Of a DNA stretch of 64,000 bases, positions 9,105 to 57,585 are shown piece by piece. How positions within the stretch are numbered: position 1 is the first letter of the stretch; each line of letters begins with the position of its first letter. The position numbers and the translations under genes are program-made. The notes below the pieces were generated by a model. That model did no database searches. It was given only the letters and a program-made list of their open reading frames with translations, and was not told the origin of the DNA. The stretch comes from a virus, in the IMG/VR virus record IMGVR_UViG_3300025120_000019, one strand, 5' to 3'.

Positions 9105-9121
9105 ATTGTATTTATTTTTCT

Positions 9122-20239: not shown

Positions 20240-20240
20240 A

Positions 20241-20500
20241 AGCCAAAATCCAGCCGAGGTAATGCTCGTCGCCGGTGGAGTGGTATCGTCCAACAGGCTG
20301 TATGCTACGAAAACCCTTTAGCTATAGGAACGAAGCGAGGGATAGCACTAAATTAGTGTGATGTCGACGTAGGTTGGGAAAGGTCAGAGCCCAGTAGCAA
20401 AGTCAAACACCTACTTCCGATCTCGGCCATGCTACTCGTATGAAGCTGGAGAAGGTGGAACCGCTAGTAGGTTCCGTCTGACCAATTTATCTGTATGAAA
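20241..20500 (+). ncRNA. Candidate structured non-coding RNA (or DNA origin element) downstream of the GIY-YIG gene
   Basis: About 51% GC over 20241-20480 by manual count; no ORF in the track. Nested helices GCCGAGGT 20253-60/ATCTCGGC 20420-27, GTAGGT 20369-74/ACCTAC 20409-14, TGGG/CCCA, GCACTA/TAGTGT and GGAACC 20457-62/GGTTCC 20470-75. Strand inferred from neighbours. Confidence 0.5.
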
Positions 20501-20584
20501 CATAAGTGCTTCGCACTTAAATTATAATAAAAATGTGTTTGAGCAAAAGCGAAAACACAGATGAACATCGTTCATCTTAGAATA

Positions 20585-20592
20585 TATAAATA
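20585..20592 (+). promoter_or_regulatory. T4-type late promoter TATAAATA
   Basis: Exact T4 late consensus 28 nt before ATG 20620. Confidence 0.7.
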
Positions 20593-20619
20593 CATACATA
20601 ACAGTTGGAACAACTCTGA

Positions 20620-23087: not shown

Positions 23088-25226
23088 TTGGCGGCGTTAG
23101 ATGATTTAGTTTCTACCTCAGGTGCTGTAAACCTATTTGGTTCAGAACTTAAAGGCGCTACTAATTCTGTAGTAGGATTAGCTGGTAATTTACTTTCTGG
23201 CAGTATGAAGCTGTCTGATTACAGTAAATCTCTTGATACAAATACCAAATTATTAGGCAAACTTGGAAAAGTTGTAAATGCATTAACAATGTTTGCTGAA
23301 CAAAGTTTATCAGAATATCAAAGTTTAACCGGTATTGGTGCAAGCTTTGGCAAACAGATGACTGAAATTAAAATTGCCGCGGCAGAACTTGGTATGAGTG
23401 TAGAAGACATGACCAAGCTGTTTAAAGACAATGCAGAAGGACTTAGTGCTTTTGGGGGCAGTACAGATTCGGCTATTAGTGCATTTAGACAATTTAGTAG
23501 TAGTGTATTGTCCAGTGACGTAGGAACAGGGTTACGTAGACTAGGATACACCGTTTCTGATATAAATGAAAATTTACTAACATATGCAGAAATTGCAGAA
23601 CAAGATAATCAATTAGAGCGTAGTGTTGGTAGAGACAGAAATCAATCTGCACTTGAATTTGCTAAAGAATTAGACTCATTAAGTAAGCTTACTGGCAAAC
23701 AAAGAGACGAACTTGCTGACCAGATGAAAGAAGCAAGACGTCAAGGAGATGTACAAGCATTCCTTACAGGACAAAGTGCTGATGCAAGTGAAGCACTTAC
23801 TACAGGACTTACAAAAATAAGTTCAACAATGGGTCCTCAGTATGCAGAATTGTTTAAAGATTTATTGATACGAGGAGCACCAACAACTGATGCAACTAGA
23901 AGTGCTTTTGTTGCACTAGGAGATAGTGCAGATGAATTTCAAGCACAGGTCGATTCATTTAGATCCGGCATGAATACAGATAATTTTAGTCAGTTTGATC
24001 AATCTATATCAGAAACACAAGCGGCTTTTACAAGATATTTGAATACTGAGGAAGGTAGACAAATAGGTATGTTAGGTGGGTTAACAGACATAAGTCAAGC
24101 ACAAGGGCAACTACGTGAAGACTCTTATGTATTTGCCAATAGACTAAATGCGGCAGGCGATGCGGCTGAAGATACACTTGTAAAGTTACAGAGAATTACA
24201 ACTGAAATAGAAAGACAACAAGAAATCCAAATGGGTCAAGAAGATCCAAGGAATCTCATAGATGAAACTATTAGGTTAAACGAAACAACACGTGAGATGG
24301 TTTTAGCAACACAACAAAAAGCTTTAACAAACTTAGAAGAAATGGGTGTAACGGCATTACAAAAAGTTCAAGATGCAATGCCTAGTGTTGGCGAGATTAC
24401 AAACAAAATAGGCGGTGTAGTTGATAATTTATTTGAAGCCGCTGGAAGAGCTGATAAATTATGGAACAGCGGCAATGGTATGATAGATTTTCCAAATCTT
24501 GCCACAATGCCCGTTGAAAATTTAACGGTAAACGAAACTTCTGGTGGAAAGATTGCTACCTTAGAAAAGCAAGAAGAAGCGGCAACTATGGTATCAAAAG
24601 CAACTGATGCACAAGATATTGCTTTCACAAAAGTTGAAGATGCAACTAACAAATTAGCTGATCTACAAGCAACTGCCGCACAAATGACAACAGACGGCTT
24701 TACCAAACAGGATCCACAGTTTGCTGGTATTCAATCTGACATAGAAAGAGTTAGAGGTGATTTAGCAAAAGCAAAAAGTGAACTACTACAAAAGCAAGCA
24801 GACTTGTATACTGCACAAAGAATAAGAGATGGACGTAGAACAGGTAATTATACACGAGGATTTGCCACAGGAGGTAATATTCCAGGCGGAAAATTTGGAG
24901 TTGTTGGTGAAGCTGGTCCAGAGTTTGTATCAGGTCCTGCTAATGTAATGAGTTCAAGGTCGAGTATGGGTGTGGTAAACAACATGATGAGAACTATTAG
25001 AAACGTAGAAAACCGTGTTCAAGAAGGTGGGTCTAATGGTCAAAATTCGATAAGTAGTAATATAACTGATAGTATGGTTAGTATGCTAGAAGGTAAACTA
25101 AATGAACAAAACATGATATTACAAAATTTATTACAAGTTGAAACTACTGCATCAGAAACAGGCAAACGCCAATACAAAGCAACTAGAGGGCTAAGTGGTA
25201 ATATGCTAAAAGGAATAGGCGCATGA
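23088..25226 (+). CDS. Tail tape measure-like protein
   Basis: 712 aa, helical A/Q/E/L-rich; C-terminal FATGGNIPGGKFGVVGEAGPE motif typical of tape measure C-termini; next to the chaperone pair. Confidence 0.7.
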   Translation: MAALDDLVSTSGAVNLFGSELKGATNSVVGLAGNLLSGSMKLSDYSKSLDTNTKLLGKLGKVVNALTMFAEQSLSEYQSLTGIGASFGKQMTEIKIAAAELGMSVEDMTKLFKDNAEGLSAFGGSTDSAISAFRQFSSSVLSSDVGTGLRRLGYTVSDINENLLTYAEIAEQDNQLERSVGRDRNQSALEFAKELDSLSKLTGKQRDELADQMKEARRQGDVQAFLTGQSADASEALTTGLTKISSTMGPQYAELFKDLLIRGAPTTDATRSAFVALGDSADEFQAQVDSFRSGMNTDNFSQFDQSISETQAAFTRYLNTEEGRQIGMLGGLTDISQAQGQLREDSYVFANRLNAAGDAAEDTLVKLQRITTEIERQQEIQMGQEDPRNLIDETIRLNETTREMVLATQQKALTNLEEMGVTALQKVQDAMPSVGEITNKIGGVVDNLFEAAGRADKLWNSGNGMIDFPNLATMPVENLTVNETSGGKIATLEKQEEAATMVSKATDAQDIAFTKVEDATNKLADLQATAAQMTTDGFTKQDPQFAGIQSDIERVRGDLAKAKSELLQKQADLYTAQRIRDGRRTGNYTRGFATGGNIPGGKFGVVGEAGPEFVSGPANVMSSRSSMGVVNNMMRTIRNVENRVQEGGSNGQNSISSNITDSMVSMLEGKLNEQNMILQNLLQVETTASETGKRQYKATRGLSGNMLKGIGA

Positions 25227-26968
25227 GCTGGAAGAAATTTTTTACGCCAGTACCAACTGGAAATAATGCAAACGGAAGTTATAGTCCGTTTAGTCAGCGG
25301 GGTGGCGCTGGTCCAGGACCTGCTTCAACTAACTATAGTTCCCATTTACCTGATGTATATGTGGGTTCGCCTAATCGTATTGAAAGATATAATCAATATA
25401 ACACAATGGACAGTGATAGCGAAGTAAATGCGGCACTAGATATACTTGCTGAATTTTGTACACAAAAGGGTAAAGATAACGATACCCATTTCAATATTCA
25501 GTTTAAGAAAAGTTCTAATAATTCCGAGGTTCAAATACTTGGTCAATACCTAAAACAATGGTGTAAACTAAATCAATTTGATGTTAGAATGTTTAGAACA
25601 ATTCGTAATGCTTTTAAATATGGAGATCAGTTTTTTATTAGAGATCCAGAAACACAAAAATTATTTCATGTTGATCCAAGCCAAGTCACAAAAATTATTG
25701 TAAATGAAAGTGACGGTAAAAAACCAGAACAGTACTGTGTAAAGAATTTAAATTTTGCATTTGAATCATTACAAGCAACTCCTTTAAATCAAACAAACAG
25801 TTATGGACCAGGTGGTACTAATGGCTATCAAACTGTAAGTCAACAGCAAGCAACAGGAACAGCAACACCTCCGGCAGGAACTAGCAGATGGCAAACTGGT
25901 GACGGAGAAACATACATAGATGCTAATCATATGGTTCATTTAAGTATGAGTGAAGGGTTAGATCAAAATTATCCATTTGGTAATAGTTTATTAGAAAGCA
26001 TTTTTAAAGTATACAAACAAAAAGAATTACTTGAAGATGCTATAATTATTTACAGAGTGCAACGAGCACCTGAAAGAAGAGTATTCTACGTTGATGTGGG
26101 TAATATGCCCTCGCATCTTGCTATACAATTTGTTGAGCGTGTTAAAACGGAAATACATCAAAGAAGAATCCCATCCAAGACAGGTGGTGGCACAAATGTT
26201 ATAGACTCATCATATAATCCACTGTCAATCAACGAAGACTACTTCTTTCCACAAACTGCTGAAGGCAGAGGATCTAAAGTTGAAACATTGCCAGGAGGCA
26301 CTAATTTAGGAGAAATAGATGATCTCAGATATTTTACTAATAAACTTGTACGTGGCTTACGAATTCCTAGTTCATATCTCCCAACCGGGGCAGATGACGG
26401 TGCTAGCCAATACAATGACGGTAGAGTAGGCACAGCATATATTCAAGAATTAAGATTCAACAAATACTGTGAAAGACTTCAAGGAATGCTTGAAGAAGTA
26501 TTTAATCTTGAATTTAAATTATATTTAAAAAATAAAGGTGTTAATGTAGATTATGCTATGTTTGATTTAGCAATGACACCTCCGCAAAACTTTGCGGCAT
26601 ATAGACAAGCCGAACTTGATAATAACCGCATCGGAACTTTTGGATCAATACAGGCTGTTCCTTTTATATCAAATAGGTTTGCATTGAAAAGATTCTTAGG
26701 AATGACAGATGAAGAGGTTGCAGAGAACGAGCGTCTGTGGAGAGAAGAGAACGAAGATCAAATGGTACCAGGTCAAGCCGAAGGCGGTGCCGCAATGGGT
26801 GCTCCTGCATTATCAGGTACTGGCCTTGGAGATGATCTAGGAGGACTAGAAGATGCATTAGCCGACGAAGGCGGCGATATAGGTGGTGGCGAAGCTCCTC
26901 CTCCTGAAACAACAACAGGAGATGACTTAGGAGGCGCACCAGCACCAGAACCTGACGCTCCTGCATAA
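25223..26968 (+). CDS. gp20: Portal protein
   Basis: LLEDAIIIYRVQRAPERRVFYVDVGNMP, EDYFFP...GRGSKVETLPGG.NLGEIDDLRYF.NKL.RGLRIPSSYL: gp20 hallmarks. Confidence 0.96.
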   Translation: MSWKKFFTPVPTGNNANGSYSPFSQRGGAGPGPASTNYSSHLPDVYVGSPNRIERYNQYNTMDSDSEVNAALDILAEFCTQKGKDNDTHFNIQFKKSSNNSEVQILGQYLKQWCKLNQFDVRMFRTIRNAFKYGDQFFIRDPETQKLFHVDPSQVTKIIVNESDGKKPEQYCVKNLNFAFESLQATPLNQTNSYGPGGTNGYQTVSQQQATGTATPPAGTSRWQTGDGETYIDANHMVHLSMSEGLDQNYPFGNSLLESIFKVYKQKELLEDAIIIYRVQRAPERRVFYVDVGNMPSHLAIQFVERVKTEIHQRRIPSKTGGGTNVIDSSYNPLSINEDYFFPQTAEGRGSKVETLPGGTNLGEIDDLRYFTNKLVRGLRIPSSYLPTGADDGASQYNDGRVGTAYIQELRFNKYCERLQGMLEEVFNLEFKLYLKNKGVNVDYAMFDLAMTPPQNFAAYRQAELDNNRIGTFGSIQAVPFISNRFALKRFLGMTDEEVAENERLWREENEDQMVPGQAEGGAAMGAPALSGTGLGDDLGGLEDALADEGGDIGGGEAPPPETTTGDDLGGAPAPEPDAPA

Positions 26969-28965: not shown

Positions 28966-29583
28966 ATGAAAATACTTAATGAACATTTGAGTTTTGACCA
29001 AGCTAGAATTGTCGTTGAGTCTGCTAATGAAGGCAAAGACCTTTTTATGAAAGGTATTTGCATTCAAGGTGGAGTAAAGAACGCAAACCAGCGTGTATAT
29101 CCAGTTAATGAAATTAGCAGGGCTGTCACCACACTCAACGAACAAATTAGTGGCGGCTACTCAGTGTTAGGAGAAGTTGATCATCCTGAAGGACTCAATA
29201 TAAACTTAGATCGTGTGTGCCATATGGTTACAGAAATGTGGATGGATGGCCCAAACGGTTATGGGAAACTTAAAATTTTACCTACACCAATGGGAGGCCT
29301 AGTTAAAACAATGCTTGAAAGCGGAGTTAAACTAGGTGTCTCATCTCGCGGTTCAGGCGAGGTAGACGGTGGTGGTCAAGTTGAAGGATTTGAAATAATT
29401 ACTGTGGACGTAGTGGCTCAGCCCTCCGCCCCTGGTGCGTATCCAACGCCAATTTACGAACATTTGATGAATGAAAGAGGCGGATACAAGGCATATTTAA
29501 CTTCGAGAGAAGTCCAAGGCGACAAAAAGGCACAAAAATATTTAAAAGAGAGCTTATTAAACATAATAAGCAGACTCCATTAA
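28966..29583 (+). CDS. gp21: Prohead maturation protease
   Basis: N.N.RVYP, GEVDHP, ILPTPMG, LGVSSRGSG and DVVAQPSAPGAY motifs. Confidence 0.95.
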   Translation: MKILNEHLSFDQARIVVESANEGKDLFMKGICIQGGVKNANQRVYPVNEISRAVTTLNEQISGGYSVLGEVDHPEGLNINLDRVCHMVTEMWMDGPNGYGKLKILPTPMGGLVKTMLESGVKLGVSSRGSGEVDGGGQVEGFEIITVDVVAQPSAPGAYPTPIYEHLMNERGGYKAYLTSREVQGDKKAQKYLKESLLNIISRLH

Positions 29584-30701: not shown

Positions 30702-31874
30702 ATGTCAGAACTATTAGAAAGTCGCTGGCAAGAGACAAAAACAGCACTTCTTGAAGGCCTTTCAGGCACAAAGAAAGCAGTAATGTCGTCAACGCTAGAA
30801 AATACTCGTAAGTATTTGGCTGAGACAGCAACTGCAGGTGCAACCTCTGCCGGTAATATAGCGACACTTAACCGTGTGATCCTACCAGTGATCAGACGTG
30901 TTATGCCAACCGTTATTGCAAACGAAATCGTTGGTGTACAACCAATGACAGGTCCAGTGGGTCAAATCCACACACTAAGAGTACGGTACTCCGATACTGT
31001 TGGTTCTGGAGCCTCAGGCGCAGTAGCAGGTGAAGAAGCACTTTCACCATTTAAAATTGCGGAAGCATATTCCGGAAACGCCACATCAGGTAAAGCAGAC
31101 GCAACTGCGGCACTTGAAGGTGAAGCCGGAAAAAGACTAAGCATTCAGATCTTAAAACAGACTGTTGAAGCTAAATCACGTAAGCTATCAGCACGATGGA
31201 CTTTTGAATCTGCACAAGATGCTCAGTCACAGCATGGTATTGATGTAGAAGCCGAAATTATGGCGGCTCTTGCTCAAGAAATTACTGCTGAAATCGATCA
31301 GGAGATCTTAGGTTCTCTTGCTTCCCTAGCAGGTACAGGTACTGATACATACAATCAAGCAAGTGTATCCGGTACTGCAACTTTTGTTGGTGATGAGCAC
31401 GCCGCTTTGGCTGTTCTCGTTAACAGAGCGGCAAACAGAATTGCTCAAAGAACACGAAGAGGCGCAGGTAACTGGGCTGTTGTGTCACCAGCAATCTTAA
31501 CTGTACTACAAAGTGCAACAACCTCAGCGTTCGCAAGAACAACTGAAGGTACATTTGAAGCACCAACAAACACCAAAATGGTTGGTACACTTAACTCAGC
31601 AATGAAGATATATGTAAACACATATGCGGCTGACGACGATGTACTTGTTGGTTACAAAGGTACAAGCGAATCAGACGCCGCGGCATTCTATTGCCCATAC
31701 ATCCCGTTGATGTCAAGTGGCGTTGTGCTTGATCCAACATCATTCGAGCCAGTCGTATCATTTATGACTCGTTACGGATATGTTGAATTGTCAAACACAG
31801 CTTCGTCTCTTGGTAATGCGGCTGACTACTTGGAAAAAGTAGAAGTCAATACAAGCAACCTTGCTTTCAGCTAA
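30702..31874 (+). CDS. gp23: Major capsid protein
   Basis: LPVIRRVMP...GVQPMTGPVGQIHTLRVRY, VEAKSRKLSARWT.E.AQD, EITAEIDQEI, FYCPYIPL, FMTRYG. Confidence 0.97.
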   Translation: MSELLESRWQETKTALLEGLSGTKKAVMSSTLENTRKYLAETATAGATSAGNIATLNRVILPVIRRVMPTVIANEIVGVQPMTGPVGQIHTLRVRYSDTVGSGASGAVAGEEALSPFKIAEAYSGNATSGKADATAALEGEAGKRLSIQILKQTVEAKSRKLSARWTFESAQDAQSQHGIDVEAEIMAALAQEITAEIDQEILGSLASLAGTGTDTYNQASVSGTATFVGDEHAALAVLVNRAANRIAQRTRRGAGNWAVVSPAILTVLQSATTSAFARTTEGTFEAPTNTKMVGTLNSAMKIYVNTYAADDDVLVGYKGTSESDAAAFYCPYIPLMSSGVVLDPTSFEPVVSFMTRYGYVELSNTASSLGNAADYLEKVEVNTSNLAFS

Positions 31875-31933: not shown

Positions 31934-32602
31934 ATGATGCAAACAGGCTTATCAGGATACTGGCATACACATAATCTATGGATAACATGGAGCCCTAAAT
32001 GTGGGTTAACCACAATGAATCATCTATACACAGATTATAAAAAATTACATAAGAAAAATTATAATTGTAATGATGATACTAAAATTATAACAATAATACG
32101 TAATCCATTAGAAAGGGCAATATCTATTTTCAATTATAATATGTATAGGTTACCTTACACAGTTGACGGAATAGATAGACTAAACGAAAGAGAATCCGAA
32201 CCAAGATATTATGAATTATTTAAAACTATAAGAAAAAAATATCCAGACCCACCAACCTCTTGGTATAATGATTCTATTGATGAAACAAAATTTTTATTTT
32301 GGTTAAATGAAATATTACCAATTAGTATTGAAAATGATGGACATTCGATGAGACAAAATACATCATGGCAGTATCCAAATCAATTGCAGACAAGATCAAA
32401 ATATTGGACTTTGGAAAATTTAAATAAACATTTGCTAAAAGTTTTTGGATACACATCTAATAAACAATATCAAAACTTTGGCAAATATAATAAAGAAAAA
32501 ATGACAACCTTATTATCTTTACCAAATGTAAAAAAGAAATTAATTGAATATTACTACACCGATAATATAATTTATAACACCGCTAAACAAAAATATAAAT
32601 AG
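31934..32602 (+). CDS. Sulfotransferase family 2-like protein
   Basis: 5'-PAPS loop SPKCGLTTM and 3'-PB motif TIIRNPLERAISIF; preceded by AGTAAATA. Confidence 0.7.
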   Translation: MMQTGLSGYWHTHNLWITWSPKCGLTTMNHLYTDYKKLHKKNYNCNDDTKIITIIRNPLERAISIFNYNMYRLPYTVDGIDRLNERESEPRYYELFKTIRKKYPDPPTSWYNDSIDETKFLFWLNEILPISIENDGHSMRQNTSWQYPNQLQTRSKYWTLENLNKHLLKVFGYTSNKQYQNFGKYNKEKMTTLLSLPNVKKKLIEYYYTDNIIYNTAKQKYK

Positions 32603-32618: not shown

Positions 32619-32810
32619 ATGACACAAACTGGCCAAGTTTATAAATTTGTTGGAACCAAAGGAGTTATTAGACCCGATTCCTTTGGCCAATATAGAAGAG
32701 ATGTATTATTTGACAAAAGAGAAAACGATTTAATTATTGGAGACAGGGTTGTATACGAGCATATGGAAAAAAATAGTAGAAGATATGCATTTAATTTAAA
32801 AAAAGTTTAA
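32619..32810 (+). CDS. Cold-shock-domain (OB-fold) protein
   Basis: TGQVYKF...KGVIRPD...DVLF...LIIGDRVVYE...AFNL follows the CSD pattern with degenerate RNP motifs; TATAAATA at 32594-601 and SD aggag. Confidence 0.6.
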   Translation: MTQTGQVYKFVGTKGVIRPDSFGQYRRDVLFDKRENDLIIGDRVVYEHMEKNSRRYAFNLKKV

Positions 32811-32817
32811 AAAAAGG

Positions 32818-32845
32818 TTGACTTTTATTTTGTATGTGCTATATT
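32818..32845 (+). promoter_or_regulatory. sigma70-like promoter with extended -10
   Basis: TTGACT-16 nt-TATATT, with TG at the extended -10 position and an A-tract upstream; no substantial ORF downstream. Confidence 0.65.
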
Positions 32846-32851
32846 AAGTAT

Positions 32852-33060
32852 ATAACAAAGACGACGGTCCTAGTTAGATAGTGCAAGGAAGAGAGATAGC
32901 AGGTCTCAAACTTGGCTAGTAGTTGTAGTGACAGCGTATGAGCGTAGAGATACGAAGATGCGACTTTAAACGTAACTGTTTAATACTAGGCTCTTGGTGA
33001 TTTAGCAGAACAGACTGCAAAGCCGGGTTGTTGGTATTCTGAAGTCCAACCTATCAACAT
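32852..33060 (+). ncRNA. Candidate multi-branch structured ncRNA (about 200 nt)
   Basis: Own promoter and terminator; about 44% GC. GATAG 32877-81/CTATC 33051-55 encloses CAAG/CTTG, CTAGTA 32916-21/TACTAG 32984-89 (with a CGTA-GAGA-TACG GNRA hairpin), GCT/AGC with GCAG/CTGC, and GTTGG 33030-34/CCAAC 33046-50. Confidence 0.6.
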
Positions 33061-33065
33061 TATAG

Positions 33066-33098
33066 AAAGGTCTATCATTTATTTGGTAGGCCTTTTTT
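33066..33098 (+). terminator. Rho-independent terminator closing the candidate ncRNA
   Basis: AAAGGTCTATCA-loop-TGGTAGGCCTTTTTT. Confidence 0.75.
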
Positions 33099-33108
33099 AT
33101 ACATTATA

Positions 33109-33134
33109 ACCCATTTTTATTTTTTTCATAAATA
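33109..33134 (+). promoter_or_regulatory. Late promoter (ACCCAT-N14-TAAATA) for the fibre operon
   Basis: acccat-ttttatttttttca-TAAATA. Confidence 0.6.
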
Positions 33135-33215
33135 CTATTGTCAATAGGTGAGCCTCATTAGAGGACTTATGCTAGACCCATAGCGTAGACTTAGAACGTC
33201 ATAAAGGAGAAAATC

Positions 33216-33581
33216 ATGGGACGACCAGTCAATAAAAGAAACTTTGGTGCAACAGGCGTTGACGCCACACCAACAATACCAATTAGATTTCACGATGGAT
33301 CATCATTAATAGAAGGAAAGATTCTATCACAACGAGGCACAAACAAATTTAACTGCTCAAACGATGCAGGAAGTGTTACAAGAGTTTGCACACTTACTAG
33401 TGATGGTAGTGCTCCAAATGCTGATAAAGAAGCTTTGCTTGTTGGAATAGCCGCAGGCGGAGAAGCTATTAATATTAGAAAAATGTTTAATAGAACTTGT
33501 TTAGACTATAGTAATAATCGATATACTTGGACAGCAGAAGACGACTCAACAGAATCATTGCTACGGTTAACTGCTATTTAA
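33216..33581 (+). CDS. Hypothetical late (probable virion) protein
   Basis: 121 aa, strong SD aaggag, after a late promoter. Confidence 0.65.
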   Translation: MGRPVNKRNFGATGVDATPTIPIRFHDGSSLIEGKILSQRGTNKFNCSNDAGSVTRVCTLTSDGSAPNADKEALLVGIAAGGEAINIRKMFNRTCLDYSNNRYTWTAEDDSTESLLRLTAI

Positions 33582-45313: not shown

Positions 45314-45441
45314 TAGCTTGGCATAAAAAACAAATAGAATGGTATAGTGATAAACTAGGTATTGGCTGGTATGGTATAGCTTGGATTGCATTCGCAAAAG
45401 GTATAATACTAACAATTATTATTGACTTTTTGTTGTTCTAG
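45310..45441 (+). CDS. Unannotated 43-aa membrane micro-protein
   Basis: TTG start overlapping the upstream TGA (TTGA); MIAWHKKQIEWYSDKLGIGWYGIAWIAFAKGIILTIIIDFLLF. Confidence 0.5.
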   Translation: MIAWHKKQIEWYSDKLGIGWYGIAWIAFAKGIILTIIIDFLLF

Positions 45442-45452
45442 ATCTATAAAAC

Positions 45453-45479
45453 ACCCACTATTTTAATCCTTGATAAATA
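45453..45479 (+). promoter_or_regulatory. Late promoter (ACCCAC-N15-TAAATA) for the 3929-aa gene
   Basis: acccac-tattttaatccttga-TAAATA. Confidence 0.6.
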
Positions 45480-45558
45480 CATTTAAGAGCGATTTCTATC
45501 GTAATTAAAATTATGGGCGTCTATATAGACTTGACTCGTACCTAAATAGGAGGCCGTT

Positions 45559-48500
45559 ATGGCAACAAAAATCAAGCATAAGCGTAGTGCGGTTGCTGGG
45601 AAGCAACCAAGTGTATCGCAGTTAGAATCAGGTGAATTAGCTATTAACACCGCAGACGGAAAAGTATACCTTTTGCGTGATGATAATACAGTTCAAGATA
45701 TAACAAAAAGAGTTTTTGAAGGAAATACAGAATTAAAAGTTGATGATTTAGGTGATAGTACGTCAGCCGCAATTACTGCAAGAGTAAATGCTGACGATAA
45801 AATGATAATCACTGATAACGGCATCAATATAAATGATGATGTACAGATTGAAAATGCCAACACACTTACACTTAAAGAATTAACAGGATCTGGTGCAGAC
45901 GGAGTAAGTCTAAAAGCACCTGATACGCTTGACGCTGGATACTCACTAACATTGCCTCCAAATAGTGGTACTATAGGTCAGCTTTTAAAAACAGATGCTA
46001 ATGGAAATTTAAGTTTTACTGATCCTGATATTTTTGGCGGTAATGTTGTCTACGTTTCTAATGAACAAGGTGATGATATAAATGACGGTCAAAGTGCTCC
46101 TGTAAAAACAATTAAACGTGCCTGTCAGATTGCTTCTGGGTTAGTTTATAATACAGACGGCACAACAAATAATAAACGTGTAAACGTTAAAGTTGCTGTT
46201 GGAGATTACACTGAACAAAATCCTATTATTGTTCCAGATAACACAGTTATTAAAGGTGACGGCTTACGTGGATGTATTTTACGTCCAGCAAATGCTAACG
46301 AAGATATGTTACGGGTGCGTAATGCTTGTTACTTTGGTGAAGTTACATTTAGAGACGGTGTAGACGAGAACGGAGTTCCATTAATTACTTTTGATTATGC
46401 TGTTGCTTTTGATGATCCGTTTGATGTAACTGTAGCTAGGGTTGGCTATACAAATATGCCAACTTCTAGACCCTTTATTACTACTTCACCATATATCCAA
46501 AACTGTTCCATACTTTCATTCTTAGGCGGTAACGGAGCAAAAATTGATGGTAGTAAAATTACATCTCCAAACGTTGGACTAGTACCTTCAGAGCAAGAAA
46601 ACCCAGTTGTAGGATCAATACCTGAACAAGGTAAGTCAATGGTTGCTAACGCCTTTACTATTCTGTCCTTCGGCGGTACAGCATGGCGATTAACCAACGA
46701 TGCTTATGCACAGATTGTGTCTTGTTTTGAAATCTTCCTACTAAACGGTGTTTATACACAGTCCGGCGGATATTGTTCTATTACTAACTCCGCTACAAAC
46801 TTTGGTTTGTATGCGTTGAGATCAAGTGGGTATTCACCTAAAGCTTTTGAATTTGATAGAGCATTTGTATCGTCAACAGGTGCTTTTGAAGGATTACAAA
46901 CTTTAAGTGTAGTTGGTATTAATCGTGCTTCACCAGTTGAAGAATTTGTATTAAGATTTAGAGACCCTGATTATAAAACTGCACGTGACTTGTTATTATT
47001 AGCTAAAAATACTATTGCAACTGATACCGTTTCATATATCAATACTCAAATTGCTGGTGCATCTGCAAGCATTTGGGCAGGATATGATTACGATCCACTG
47101 CAAGCAAAATGTGAAAGAGATACAAAATTATTAGTAGATGCTATTAGGTACGACGCGGCGTTTAACACAAATTATAGATCAATTGCATCTGTAATTACAT
47201 ACTTTAATGGACGTCAAACACCAGCAGTATTTGAATCACAAAGACTACAAGAAGTAGATGCTTTTACACAAGCAAAAGCATTTACTACAAATATAACACA
47301 AGATTCCACATATGATGCAAGAGTTAACGCATTATGGGATGAAGTTATTGATATTCTGGAACACTCTGGAACATATACTGCTGGCACAGGTACTTCATAT
47401 AATGCGGCAAGCGGTTCACTTATTTTAAACGTAGGTGCTCACGATTTAACTGTAGGAACCCAGATTGAAATTGCTCCTAACAGCTTATCATTCAGCTGTG
47501 ACTATGGACAAGGTGCTCATACTTATGTAGGTGGTACTGTAACAGATGCAATTACAATTACTTCAGGTAGTGTTAAAAGAGATGTAACTGATGCAACATA
47601 CAATCATGCAACAGGCGTAATGGAACTTACTATAGGTTCACATAGTTTTACAACTAGTGACACAGTAACAATAGAAACAAATTCTTTAACATTTACTTGT
47701 GCGGCTGATAGTAATGCAACAAACCATACCTATCCAAGAGTAGGAGATCCAGCCGACGGAGTTGCAATAGCTATTTCAGCAGTATCCGGTACTACAATAA
47801 CTGTTAATGTAGGAGCAGTTGGCTCGTCAAGTTCTACTAAAACATATCCAAGAGCAGTTAATGCATCTAACGGAGATCCAGATCCGGCATACAAAACTCC
47901 TGTTACAATTACCGCAGTAAATGCAACTACAGTTACAGTAAATATTGGTAACGCAGGATCAGCCGCTTCGTCAGCTCATACTTTTGAAAGTGCTACAGCT
48001 AATTCTATTACAGTTGCAGGTACTGGAACATTTTCAGATCCCACAGGCTATAATACAAGCTACCTTGCAGGCTACGGTAATGCAAGAGCACAATTAATTG
48101 CAAATAGAAAATTTATTGTTGCAGAAATTACAGCCTATGTTAATAATCAAATTGCCGCTGGAACTGCACCATTTTCAAAAACATTTACATATAGTAAAGA
48201 AAAATGTGAAGAAGATATTGGACATTATTTAGATGCATTTTTATATGATTTAACATATGGTGGTAACTTACAAACTATTGATGCCGCTAATCAAAATTTT
48301 ACTAATACAACACAAGCAGGTGGACTTGCTAATAATAGACTATCAGAATATGGCGAAAAAGCACAAACACTTGCCGCTTATGTTAGATTGAAAGAAGTAT
48401 TAGGTCAAATTGTTCAAGAACAAACAGTAACTAAAAGTGGTGGAGGAGTTCATACTTATGTAGGTGGTACTGTAACAAATGCGGTTACTATAACAGCACC

Positions 48501-57348: not shown

Positions 57349-57359
57349 ACTATAAGGAC

Positions 57360-57388
57360 TTGACATACATAATTATAAGTGTTAAAAT
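57360..57388 (+). promoter_or_regulatory. sigma70-like promoter (plus late TAAATA core at 57342-47)
   Basis: TTGACA-17 nt-TAAAAT with extended -10 TG. Confidence 0.6.
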
Positions 57389-57414
57389 AAAAAATATGAA
57401 TGTAGGAAAATAAT

Positions 57415-57585
57415 ATGGCTTTACCTAATACAGGAAGCACAATTACAATGAGTCAAATCTCTAACTATTTCAGTGGACCATCGTCCACAATTAGACTCAG
57501 TGCCGATTTAGGACCATATATAGGTATAGGTAACCAGGCTACTATATCAATGAGTAGTAGTTTTGGCGGATATTATTTTCCATAA
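57415..57585 (+). CDS. Unannotated 56-aa protein resembling a fibre-tip cap (gp38 N-terminal-like) domain
   Basis: SD agga, ATG 57415; MALPNTGSTITMSQISNYFSGPSSTIRLSADLGPYIGIGNQATISMSSSFGGYYFP, directly after the S74-bearing fibre gene. Confidence 0.6.
   Translation: MALPNTGSTITMSQISNYFSGPSSTIRLSADLGPYIGIGNQATISMSSSFGGYYFP

Follow-up and report, generated by a model that had tools for sequence, protein, structure and literature searches.

The window analysed in this work is a stretch of 64,000 nucleotides (nt) from the IMG/VR virus record IMGVR_UViG_3300025120_000019, a low-GC (about 34%) phage segment encoding a T4-type portal (25223-26968), a prohead protease (28966-29583) and a gp23-type major capsid protein (30702-31874), with two giant open reading frames (ORFs) downstream of this block. 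The capsid protein was closest to those of jumbo phages (71% for Vibrio phage 2.275.O, followed by Sinorhizobium Phosso, Pseudomonas PA5oct and Pectobacterium CBB), and the carrier is a giant, or jumbo, aquatic phage with capsid genes similar to their counterparts in Vibrio phage 2.275.O and PA5oct. The longest non-coding stretch of the window, a 405-nt gap at 32811-33215 between a 63-amino-acid (aa) and a 121-aa gene, holds the element studied here: an RNA of about 205 nt (core at 32855-33057) with a five-way junction of the RF01745 type, which is almost certainly, on the evidence of its sequence, a divergent member of the manA family missed by the curated threshold. Read from 5′ to 3′, the gap consists of an A-rich tract, a promoter, a GC-richer block, a hairpin with a U-run, an AT-rich block containing ATAAATAC, three small hairpins, AAGGAG and the ATG at 33216. 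The RNA block has a GC content of 0.43 against about 0.33 nearby, and the longest ORF within it is one of 34 codons on the minus strand; the elements of the gap and the two genes flanking it all lie on the plus strand. For comparison, 71 related loci (numbered with the prefix L) were collected via the 121-aa protein, and many of them aligned to the intergenic region of the window from end to end at 68-77% identity.

The manA RNAs were described by Weinberg et al. (2010, Genome Biol 11:R31, PMC2864571), who reported them from marine metagenomes, from T4-like cyanophages and from two gamma-proteobacteria. They commonly lay within 5′ untranslated regions (UTRs) of unrelated genes and were rated a probable riboswitch, a "pseudoknot?" being marked in the drawing; phage genome papers after 2010 merely list manA. 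At the gathering thresholds of Rfam, no match was obtained in the window. When permissive thresholds were applied, the manA model matched 32857-33060 over its full length (model positions 1-192) with 31 bits, which does not reach the gathering threshold of 55.2 bits, and with E-values of 3.9e-6 in a 701-nt search and 3.6e-4 in a search of the whole window. Syntenic RNAs scored above the threshold in 5 of the 20 related loci sampled (L053, 89.3 bits; L013, 62.5; L007, 59.0; L028, 56.3; L008, 55.4), and two of these loci, L007 and L008, aligned to the window across the entire intergenic region at 69-71% identity. A covariance model, R1, was built from the window and 11 relatives of manA architecture. 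R1 gave one match only in the window, at 181 bits, and 41 matches in the related loci; it also detected the manA RNAs of P-SSM4 (38 bits; 184 bits with the Rfam model) and P-SSM2 (34 bits; 182 bits with the Rfam model), together with 80 further copies of cyanophage type that had been gathered by the pattern of the 3′ hairpin. The homology thus holds in both directions, since the Rfam model matches RNAs of this clade and R1 matches accepted manA RNAs. The RNA therefore belongs to a known family and is not a new RNA class. A sequence-only reading of the locus, made earlier without database searches, had proposed an undescribed non-coding RNA and had named a known Rfam family as the result that would speak against it; with RF01745 found, that proposal falls. 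It had also recognised neither tRNA nor tmRNA here, in agreement with ARAGORN, which reported neither in the window, and only manA and a second element, freshwater-2, appeared in Rfam at permissive thresholds.

No match was found by blastn of the region, or of the RNA of its best-scoring relative, against 50,697 phage records. Neither Vibrio phage 2.275.O, whose capsid protein makes it the closest cultured relative, nor the 182-kb related contig behind L034 gave a match to the Rfam manA model, so the manA cassette is accessory. A separate observation concerns the annotation of P-SSM4, in which a "hypothetical protein", PSSM4_169.1 (L078, positions 164884-165057 of the record), lies inside the manA RNA (164829-165014); here an RNA gene has probably been miscalled as an ORF.

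The predicted fold has the manA architecture. The closing helix P2 (GAUAG, 32877-32881, with CUAUC, 33051-33055) was 98% paired, with compensatory changes in 5 of 5 pairs, and surrounds four arms, one of them a junction of three hairpins. It is preceded by the 5′ hairpin P1 (32857-32872), whose conserved GACG loop (32863-66) is the same in P-SSM2 and P-SSM4. Arm P3 (32884-32914) is composed of an outer CAAG/CUUG and an inner GAGAU/GUCUC helix, 100% and 96% paired, beneath the loop AGCAG. Stem P4 (32916-32989; CUAGUA at 32916-21 with UACUAG at 32984-89) encloses P5 (32922-32), P6 (32934-63, with a GAGA loop at 32947-50) and P7 (32966-83); the helices of this P4-P7 region were 91-100% paired, and most of their pairs showed compensatory changes. 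Arm P8 (32993-33027) carries an outer CUUGG/CCGGG helix, an inner GCAG/CUGC helix and the loop AACAGA, and hairpin P9 (33030-33050; GUUGG/CCAAC, 11-nt loop), which is conserved more strongly than any other part of the family, was 100% paired. RNAalifold, applied to 12 close sequences with no prior structure, recovered the terminator as well as the closing helix and its arms, 20 pairs being kept via double changes. In the model-guided alignment A4 (24 distinct sequences, 12 helices), 93.3% of the cells were paired, as against 34-41% when the partners were slid by 1-3 columns, these pairing percentages being inflated for the modelled helices by alignment to the model structure, in A4 as in alignment A6. 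Compensatory changes were found in 52 of the 60 pairs of A4, and every helix was supported. Covariation had been named as a check in the sequence-only reading, and it supports what was drawn there: a five-way junction with a GATAG/CTATC closing helix, four arms and a hairpin capped by GAGA.

One further pairing had been suggested there as a possible switch or pseudoknot, between CCTAGT (32869-74) and ACTAGG (32985-90). The complementarity does exist in the window, but it did not covary: the segments were 70.7% paired against a shuffle mean of 70.9%, 304 of 500 shuffles reached the observed value, and in the L007 group, where P4 becomes CUCACA/UGUGAG, the 5′ segment does not follow. The contacts that covary instead are two loop-loop contacts, L5-L7 and L8-L9, which are described below. 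There is next to no chance that a small protein is the conserved feature of the region. Although a 20-codon ORF (32938-33000) exists in the window copy, its start codon is missing in 12 of 24 distinct relatives, 7 of those keeping the ATG stop after 5 codons, and substitutions here preserve base pairing by compensation and are not synonymous; conservation of this ORF was thus refuted by the alignment. Shortened forms of the RNA, of about 172 nt, were seen in L013-L017 and L019 (2188-2359 in L013) and in L021 (about 2178-2389), in which one hairpin replaces the P4-P7 junction with its three hairpins. They are without the L5-L7 contact, score above the Rfam threshold (62.5 bits) and keep complementary L8 and L9 loops (AGGA/UCCU).

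The RNA is flanked by signals of its own. A sigma70-type promoter (32818-32845) was identified, with TTGACT at 32818-32823, a 16-nt spacer, an extended -10 element TGc-TATATT (TATATT at 32840-32845) and an A-rich tract upstream. With 33 hits against 33.3 expected, a simple promoter scan is at chance level here, where the sequence is AT-rich, and the site is credible because it is conserved across relatives, not because of the scan count: it was present in 21 of 22 distinct relatives, ending about 8 nt 5′ of the RNA, and the lone exception is cut by a contig end. A sigma70-type promoter was also found at 50 of 66 manA copies of cyanophage type, and TTGACA/TATAAT promoters stand immediately 5′ of the P-SSM2 and P-SSM4 RNAs. 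On the 3′ side lies an intrinsic terminator (33066-33098) with a stem of about 11 bp, a 6-nt loop and a U-run, whose hairpin (33066-33094) was part of the minimum free energy fold. The consensus terminator scan did not list this hairpin, a probable reason being that its stem can be lengthened into the T-run. With one crude in-house finder, which was used for this clade (22 distinct sequences) and for the cyanophage-type copies (66) alike, a terminator was found in 22/22 relatives, starting 8-48 nt after the RNA, and in 12/66 copies of cyanophage type. Among the relatives the terminator stems fell into at least 6 different sequence types, with compensatory changes, while the linker between RNA and terminator was AU-rich and variable, with a 40-nt insertion in L012. 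The predicted primary transcript, with its ends placed by the promoter and the terminator, would span 32852-33098 (about 247 nt). The earlier proposal of a stand-alone unit running from promoter to terminator without a substantial ORF thus holds well: both signals lie where it had placed them, both are conserved, no conserved ORF was found, and the promoter is indeed of host type inside a block of structural genes.

A self-processing RNA, either a ribozyme or a transcript that is cut and circularised, was also considered and is highly improbable. No known ribozyme family matched the window even at permissive Rfam thresholds, and the conserved terminator hairpin already defines a 3′ end. The accessible part of a recent preprint on manA structure (10.64898/2026.07.01.735769) describes the in vitro transcribed RNAs as oligomers and makes no mention of self-cleavage.

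Beyond the terminator, a separate set of control elements precedes the 121-aa gene (33216-33581), the first gene to follow the RNA unit. At 33101-33135 we found a late-type promoter-like element formed by an ACCCA box (33109-13), a 14-nt spacer and ATAAATAC (33128-35). The block ACCCA-N14-ATAAATAC was invariant in alignment A1 and is similar to the T4 late motif TATAAATA; ATAAATA occurred 51-107 nt after the RNA in 22/22 relatives, and the same bipartite motif (45450-45480) stands upstream of the giant ORF at 45559. It looks like the late promoter of this phage, akin to the T4-type TATAAATA, as far as sequence resemblance goes. In raw numbers, ATAAATAC does not exceed chance in the window, with 4 copies where 7.3 are expected. 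Its four copies (33128-35; within 45450-45480; 20586-20593; and 9108-9115 on the minus strand) are each intergenic and point at the next gene, and in 2 of the 4 an ACCCA box lies 14-15 nt upstream.

This motif is followed by the 5′ leader of the 121-aa gene (three small hairpins, AAGGAG and ATG), which corresponds to freshwater-2 RNA (RF02980; 33151-33218). In the window freshwater-2 scored 37.7 bits and did not reach its gathering threshold of 49.9, and at the same position in 9 of the 20 related loci it scored above it, with 50.9-53.9 bits; its hairpins showed compensatory changes in alignment A1. With a late-type motif of its own in front, this element stands apart from the manA transcript. 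An orphan metagenomic motif is thereby connected with a late structural gene in jumbo phages. The 121-aa protein itself was predicted to be all-beta (AlphaFold2, AF2; predicted local distance difference test, pLDDT, 81) and belonged to no Pfam or PHROG family; a tandem-Tudor-like assignment, for which the fold search gave a TM-score of about 0.29, was not accepted. In some relatives the gene is tandemly duplicated, as in L028 (2043-2492 and 2501-2863), where the upstream paralogue of 149 aa shares the N-terminus MGRP-NKRNFG.

The relatives without manA show how far the downstream gene depends on the RNA. In the L022, L043, L046, L054 and L059 groups, only a gap of 90-180 nt precedes the 121-aa gene, and ATAAATA lies 86-102 nt before its start, compared with 88 nt in the window. 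Freshwater-2 was above threshold in the manA-free L054; in L020 the leader is present and the exact ATAAATA motif absent; and in L022 and L043 the 121-aa module follows directly on the capsid gene. Because manA-free relatives keep the motif and, where scanned, the leader, promoter, manA and terminator are best seen as a cassette at a variable spot behind the capsid gene, on which the 121-aa gene does not depend. In other phages this spot is taken by a glutamine riboswitch with a small ORF or by a cold-shock-like gene. We conclude that the RNA is probably transcribed as an independent unit and without a regulatory effect on the next gene.

The principal alternative is a transcription-attenuation riboswitch, in which the manA fold would bind a metabolite and thereby set read-through at 33066-33098 into the 121-aa gene and the later structural genes. 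The order of promoter, aptamer, terminator and gene is the classical layout of such a switch and counts to that extent against an independent RNA gene, and the original rating of manA as a probable riboswitch rested on its complex structure and its 5′-UTR positions (Weinberg et al., 2010). The P-SSM2 copy argues in the same direction, as its RNA adjoins a start codon, ending 16 nt before it. Other members of the family may therefore act in cis, and the terminator layout is by the same token a property of this clade, not a rule of the family. An expression platform, however, was not seen here. No conserved alternative pairing links the RNA with the terminator: over 18 distinct copies, the 5′ arm of the terminator paired with the RNA no better than shuffled arms did (z from -1.9 to +1.4, at inconsistent positions), and aptamer and terminator did not show mutually exclusive pairing. 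The variable linker, with its insertion in L012, also speaks against a switch, as do the promoter-like motif and leader of the next gene, which persist without manA. Furthermore, genes adjacent to manA are unrelated across the family, and no ligand for it was found in the searchable literature since 2010. Taken together, we consider a riboswitch at this locus unlikely.

On the 5′ side of the promoter lies the 63-aa gene (32619-32810), whose ORF is conserved in 18 related loci. Single-sequence searches with its product found nothing, with no Pfam match even at an E-value of 10. A profile of 11 homologues (alignment A5), on the other hand, matched cold-shock proteins exclusively in the PDB, with E-values of 0.008-1.4. 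The AF2 model, a five-stranded barrel with a pLDDT of 91.6, was matched by Foldseek to CspA at the top (TM-score 0.78), CspA and the cold-shock domains (CSDs) of Unr giving 0.72-0.78 with E-values of about 2e-3. Going by profile and model, the protein is of a divergent cold-shock-type fold, and the identification made from the letters was right at the fold level. Compared with the reference motifs of CSDs (RNP1, K-G-F-G-F-I; RNP2, V-F-V-H-F), the RNP1-like region of the window protein is two residues shorter and without aromatics (sister clades have K-K-Y-G), while RNP2 retains D-V-L-F.

It had further been proposed that this protein is the partner of the RNA, in an RNA-protein complex or as chaperone to client. 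The gene stands directly 5′ of the RNA promoter here and in the 18 related loci, and a nucleic-acid-binding fold of this type would suit such a role. Co-occurrence does not bear the proposal out. About half of the distinct related loci with manA units (the L008, L044, L013, L028, L031, L053, L066 and L069 groups) are without the 63-aa gene, and so are the manA loci of P-SSM2 and P-SSM4, the two cyanophage loci inspected; a dedicated partnership is for this reason unlikely. The loss of RNP1 length and aromatics counts against it too, and CSDs bind single strands whereas the manA RNA is almost fully paired. We give this partnership very little weight, only slightly more than self-processing.

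The loops of the RNA provided a second line of evidence. L5 (UAGU, 32926-29) and L7 (ACUG, 32975-78) are complementary; this contact was 94% paired, and its central pair was AU in 9, GC in 7 and GU in 4 distinct sequences. L8 (CAGA, 33011-14) and L9 (UCUG, 33038-41) form a second complementary pair, and among 82 distinct family RNAs a perfect Watson-Crick complement of at least 4 nt between the apex of L8 and L9 was found in 95%. It was realised by 16 different sequence pairs, 9 of which occur in one RNA each, whereas the control combinations (L5 with L9, L8 with L7) were complementary in 5-10%. Among the variants, the main sister clade has AGGAU/AUCCU, L025 has AUGA/UCAU, deeper relatives have GGUA/UACC and UGGU/ACCA, and copies of cyanophage type have CUGU/ACAG, AUGU/ACAU and UAAUGU/ACAUUA. 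Neither contact was part of the model used for the alignment. As predicted contacts, both L5-L7 and L8-L9 are shown by covariation to be maintained across the family.

Ren et al. (2026, bioRxiv 10.64898/2026.07.01.735769) report cryo-electron microscopy (cryo-EM) structures of several manA RNAs, which assemble into decamers, octamers and, with 60 subunits, a T=1 icosahedral cage measuring about 430 Å. All of these assemblies are described there as pentamer-based and joined by intermolecular kissing loops: L5-L7′ and L8-L9′ in manA_A0F1, which forms the 60-mer, and an L6-P6′ GNRA-receptor interaction along with L5-L7′ plus L3-L8′ in another variant. In the window RNA the apex of P8 should lie about 12 or more bp from the junction, with L9 on an adjacent 5-bp stem. 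Given this length and position, an intramolecular L8-L9 kiss would need a sharp bend of P8, and an intermolecular one would need none.

The overall explanation we favour, with moderate confidence, is that of a manA-family RNA gene in a self-contained cassette, whose product acts in trans as an oligomeric particle. A host-type RNA polymerase would start at the strong sigma70-type promoter, near 32852, and stop at the terminator, releasing an RNA of about 247 nt as an early transcript. This RNA would fold into the 5′ GACG hairpin, the closing helix and the four arms, one of them the three-hairpin junction with its GNRA loop. By analogy with the cryo-EM work, the L5-L7 and L8-L9 contacts could join neighbouring molecules into pentamers and these into decamers or a 60-mer cage, and the RNA would act in trans as such a particle and not as a switch for the 121-aa gene. 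Taken for itself, the proposition that the window RNA is oligomeric in vivo is possible but somewhat doubtful, being drawn by analogy. A bolder version, that manA RNA is made early as a free transcript and forms closed particles of RNA alone in the cell, either rings based on pentamers or a shell of 60 subunits, which are held by both kissing-loop pairs and would serve in infection as a phage RNA compartment or decoy and not as a gene switch, is put forward as a tentative and rather improbable one. A role as scaffold or sequestering shell is speculation.

Besides the classical layout and the P-SSM2 arrangement, several points weigh against the oligomeric particle. In the preprint (10.64898/2026.07.01.735769), cage formation took place in vitro, with RNA at about 3 mg/mL, 10 mM Mg2+ and 50 C. 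The mapping of its L5, L7, L8 and L9 onto the hairpins of the window depends on taking the GNRA loop to be L6, and covariation cannot separate intramolecular from intermolecular kissing loops. We infer the transcript ends and the efficiency of the terminator from sequence features. The inflation of the pairing percentages in A4 and A6 also has to be counted here, although the loop contacts are unaffected by it.

Some further features of the region were recorded. Between the capsid and the cold-shock-like genes lies a 222-aa ORF (31934-32602) with a sulfotransferase-domain match below threshold (E 0.007); it is missing in relatives whose capsid gene directly precedes the 121-aa gene. In several relatives a glutamine riboswitch (RF01739, 50-52 bits) was found between the capsid gene and the manA cassette (L028, 1397-1443; L031, 1387-1433; L053, 1959-2006), followed in L028 by a basic ORF of 50 aa (1466-1618); a nitrogen-sensing switch in a structural block of a jumbo phage is unusual. 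The position following the capsid gene looks like a hot spot at which accessory genes and RNAs are inserted. Three other long intergenic gaps of the window, at 20240-20619 (380 nt), 45314-45558 (245 nt) and 57349-57562 (214 nt), contained no Rfam family at E ≤0.1 and no match to R1.

These results bear on an RNA family that has been an orphan riboswitch candidate since 2010 and for which the 2026 preprint gives cages in vitro and no link to biology. In one phage lineage manA is plainly a gene of its own, with promoter and terminator, beside a neighbour whose separate control elements are kept without it. The L5-L7 and L8-L9 contacts, which we equate with inter-subunit contacts of the cages, covary across 82 natural sequences and are therefore under selection; if the particle proposal is true, this natural covariation of the kissing interfaces would give the first evidence for selection on the cages seen in vitro, too. 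The existence and relevance of manA particles in infected cells thereby become directly testable. Our data also suggest that the "cis-regulatory" label and the threshold of the Rfam manA entry need revisiting.

SreA and SreB of Listeria are riboswitch leaders that end at their own terminators and then act in trans as small RNAs. The window RNA resembles them as a structured, aptamer-like RNA that is predicted to be released as a discrete terminated transcript; SreA and SreB have known ligands and antiterminator/terminator alternatives, whereas neither an alternative pairing nor a ligand was seen here. The covarying L5-L7 and L8-L9 contacts and the GNRA loop on P6 resemble, under our own numbering of the loops, the pentamer contacts of manA_A0F1 as given in the preprint, where the oligomers were seen in vitro at high RNA concentration, while the window RNA is known as a sequence. 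Within the manA family, several differences set this RNA apart. Its closing helix is GAUAG/CUAUC instead of the GGGAG/CUCCC of the family, and its L8/L9 pair is CAGA/UCUG instead of the CUGU/ACAG of cyanophage copies. The previously known carriers are T4-like cyanophages and gamma-proteobacteria, whereas here the RNA resides in a jumbo phage with a capsid like those of 2.275.O and PA5oct. A terminator follows it in 22/22 cases, as against 12/66 in the cyanophage type, and a separate promoter-like element then precedes the next gene, so that the Rfam type "cis-regulatory" does not fit manA in this clade, where the RNA does not lie in the 5′ UTR of a gene under its control. The likenesses are nevertheless extensive. 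As in P-SSM2 and P-SSM4, a sigma70-type promoter of its own lies directly upstream, and with RF01745 it shares the nine-helix architecture, an origin in phages and aquatic metagenomes, reciprocal covariance-model matches, the P1 loop GACG, the AGUG that follows the closing helix, L5 of the type GURGUG, a GNRA L6, L7 of the type ACYA and, ahead of the closing strand, the GGUA...UCC 3′ hairpin (UUG-GGUA...UCC-ACCU).

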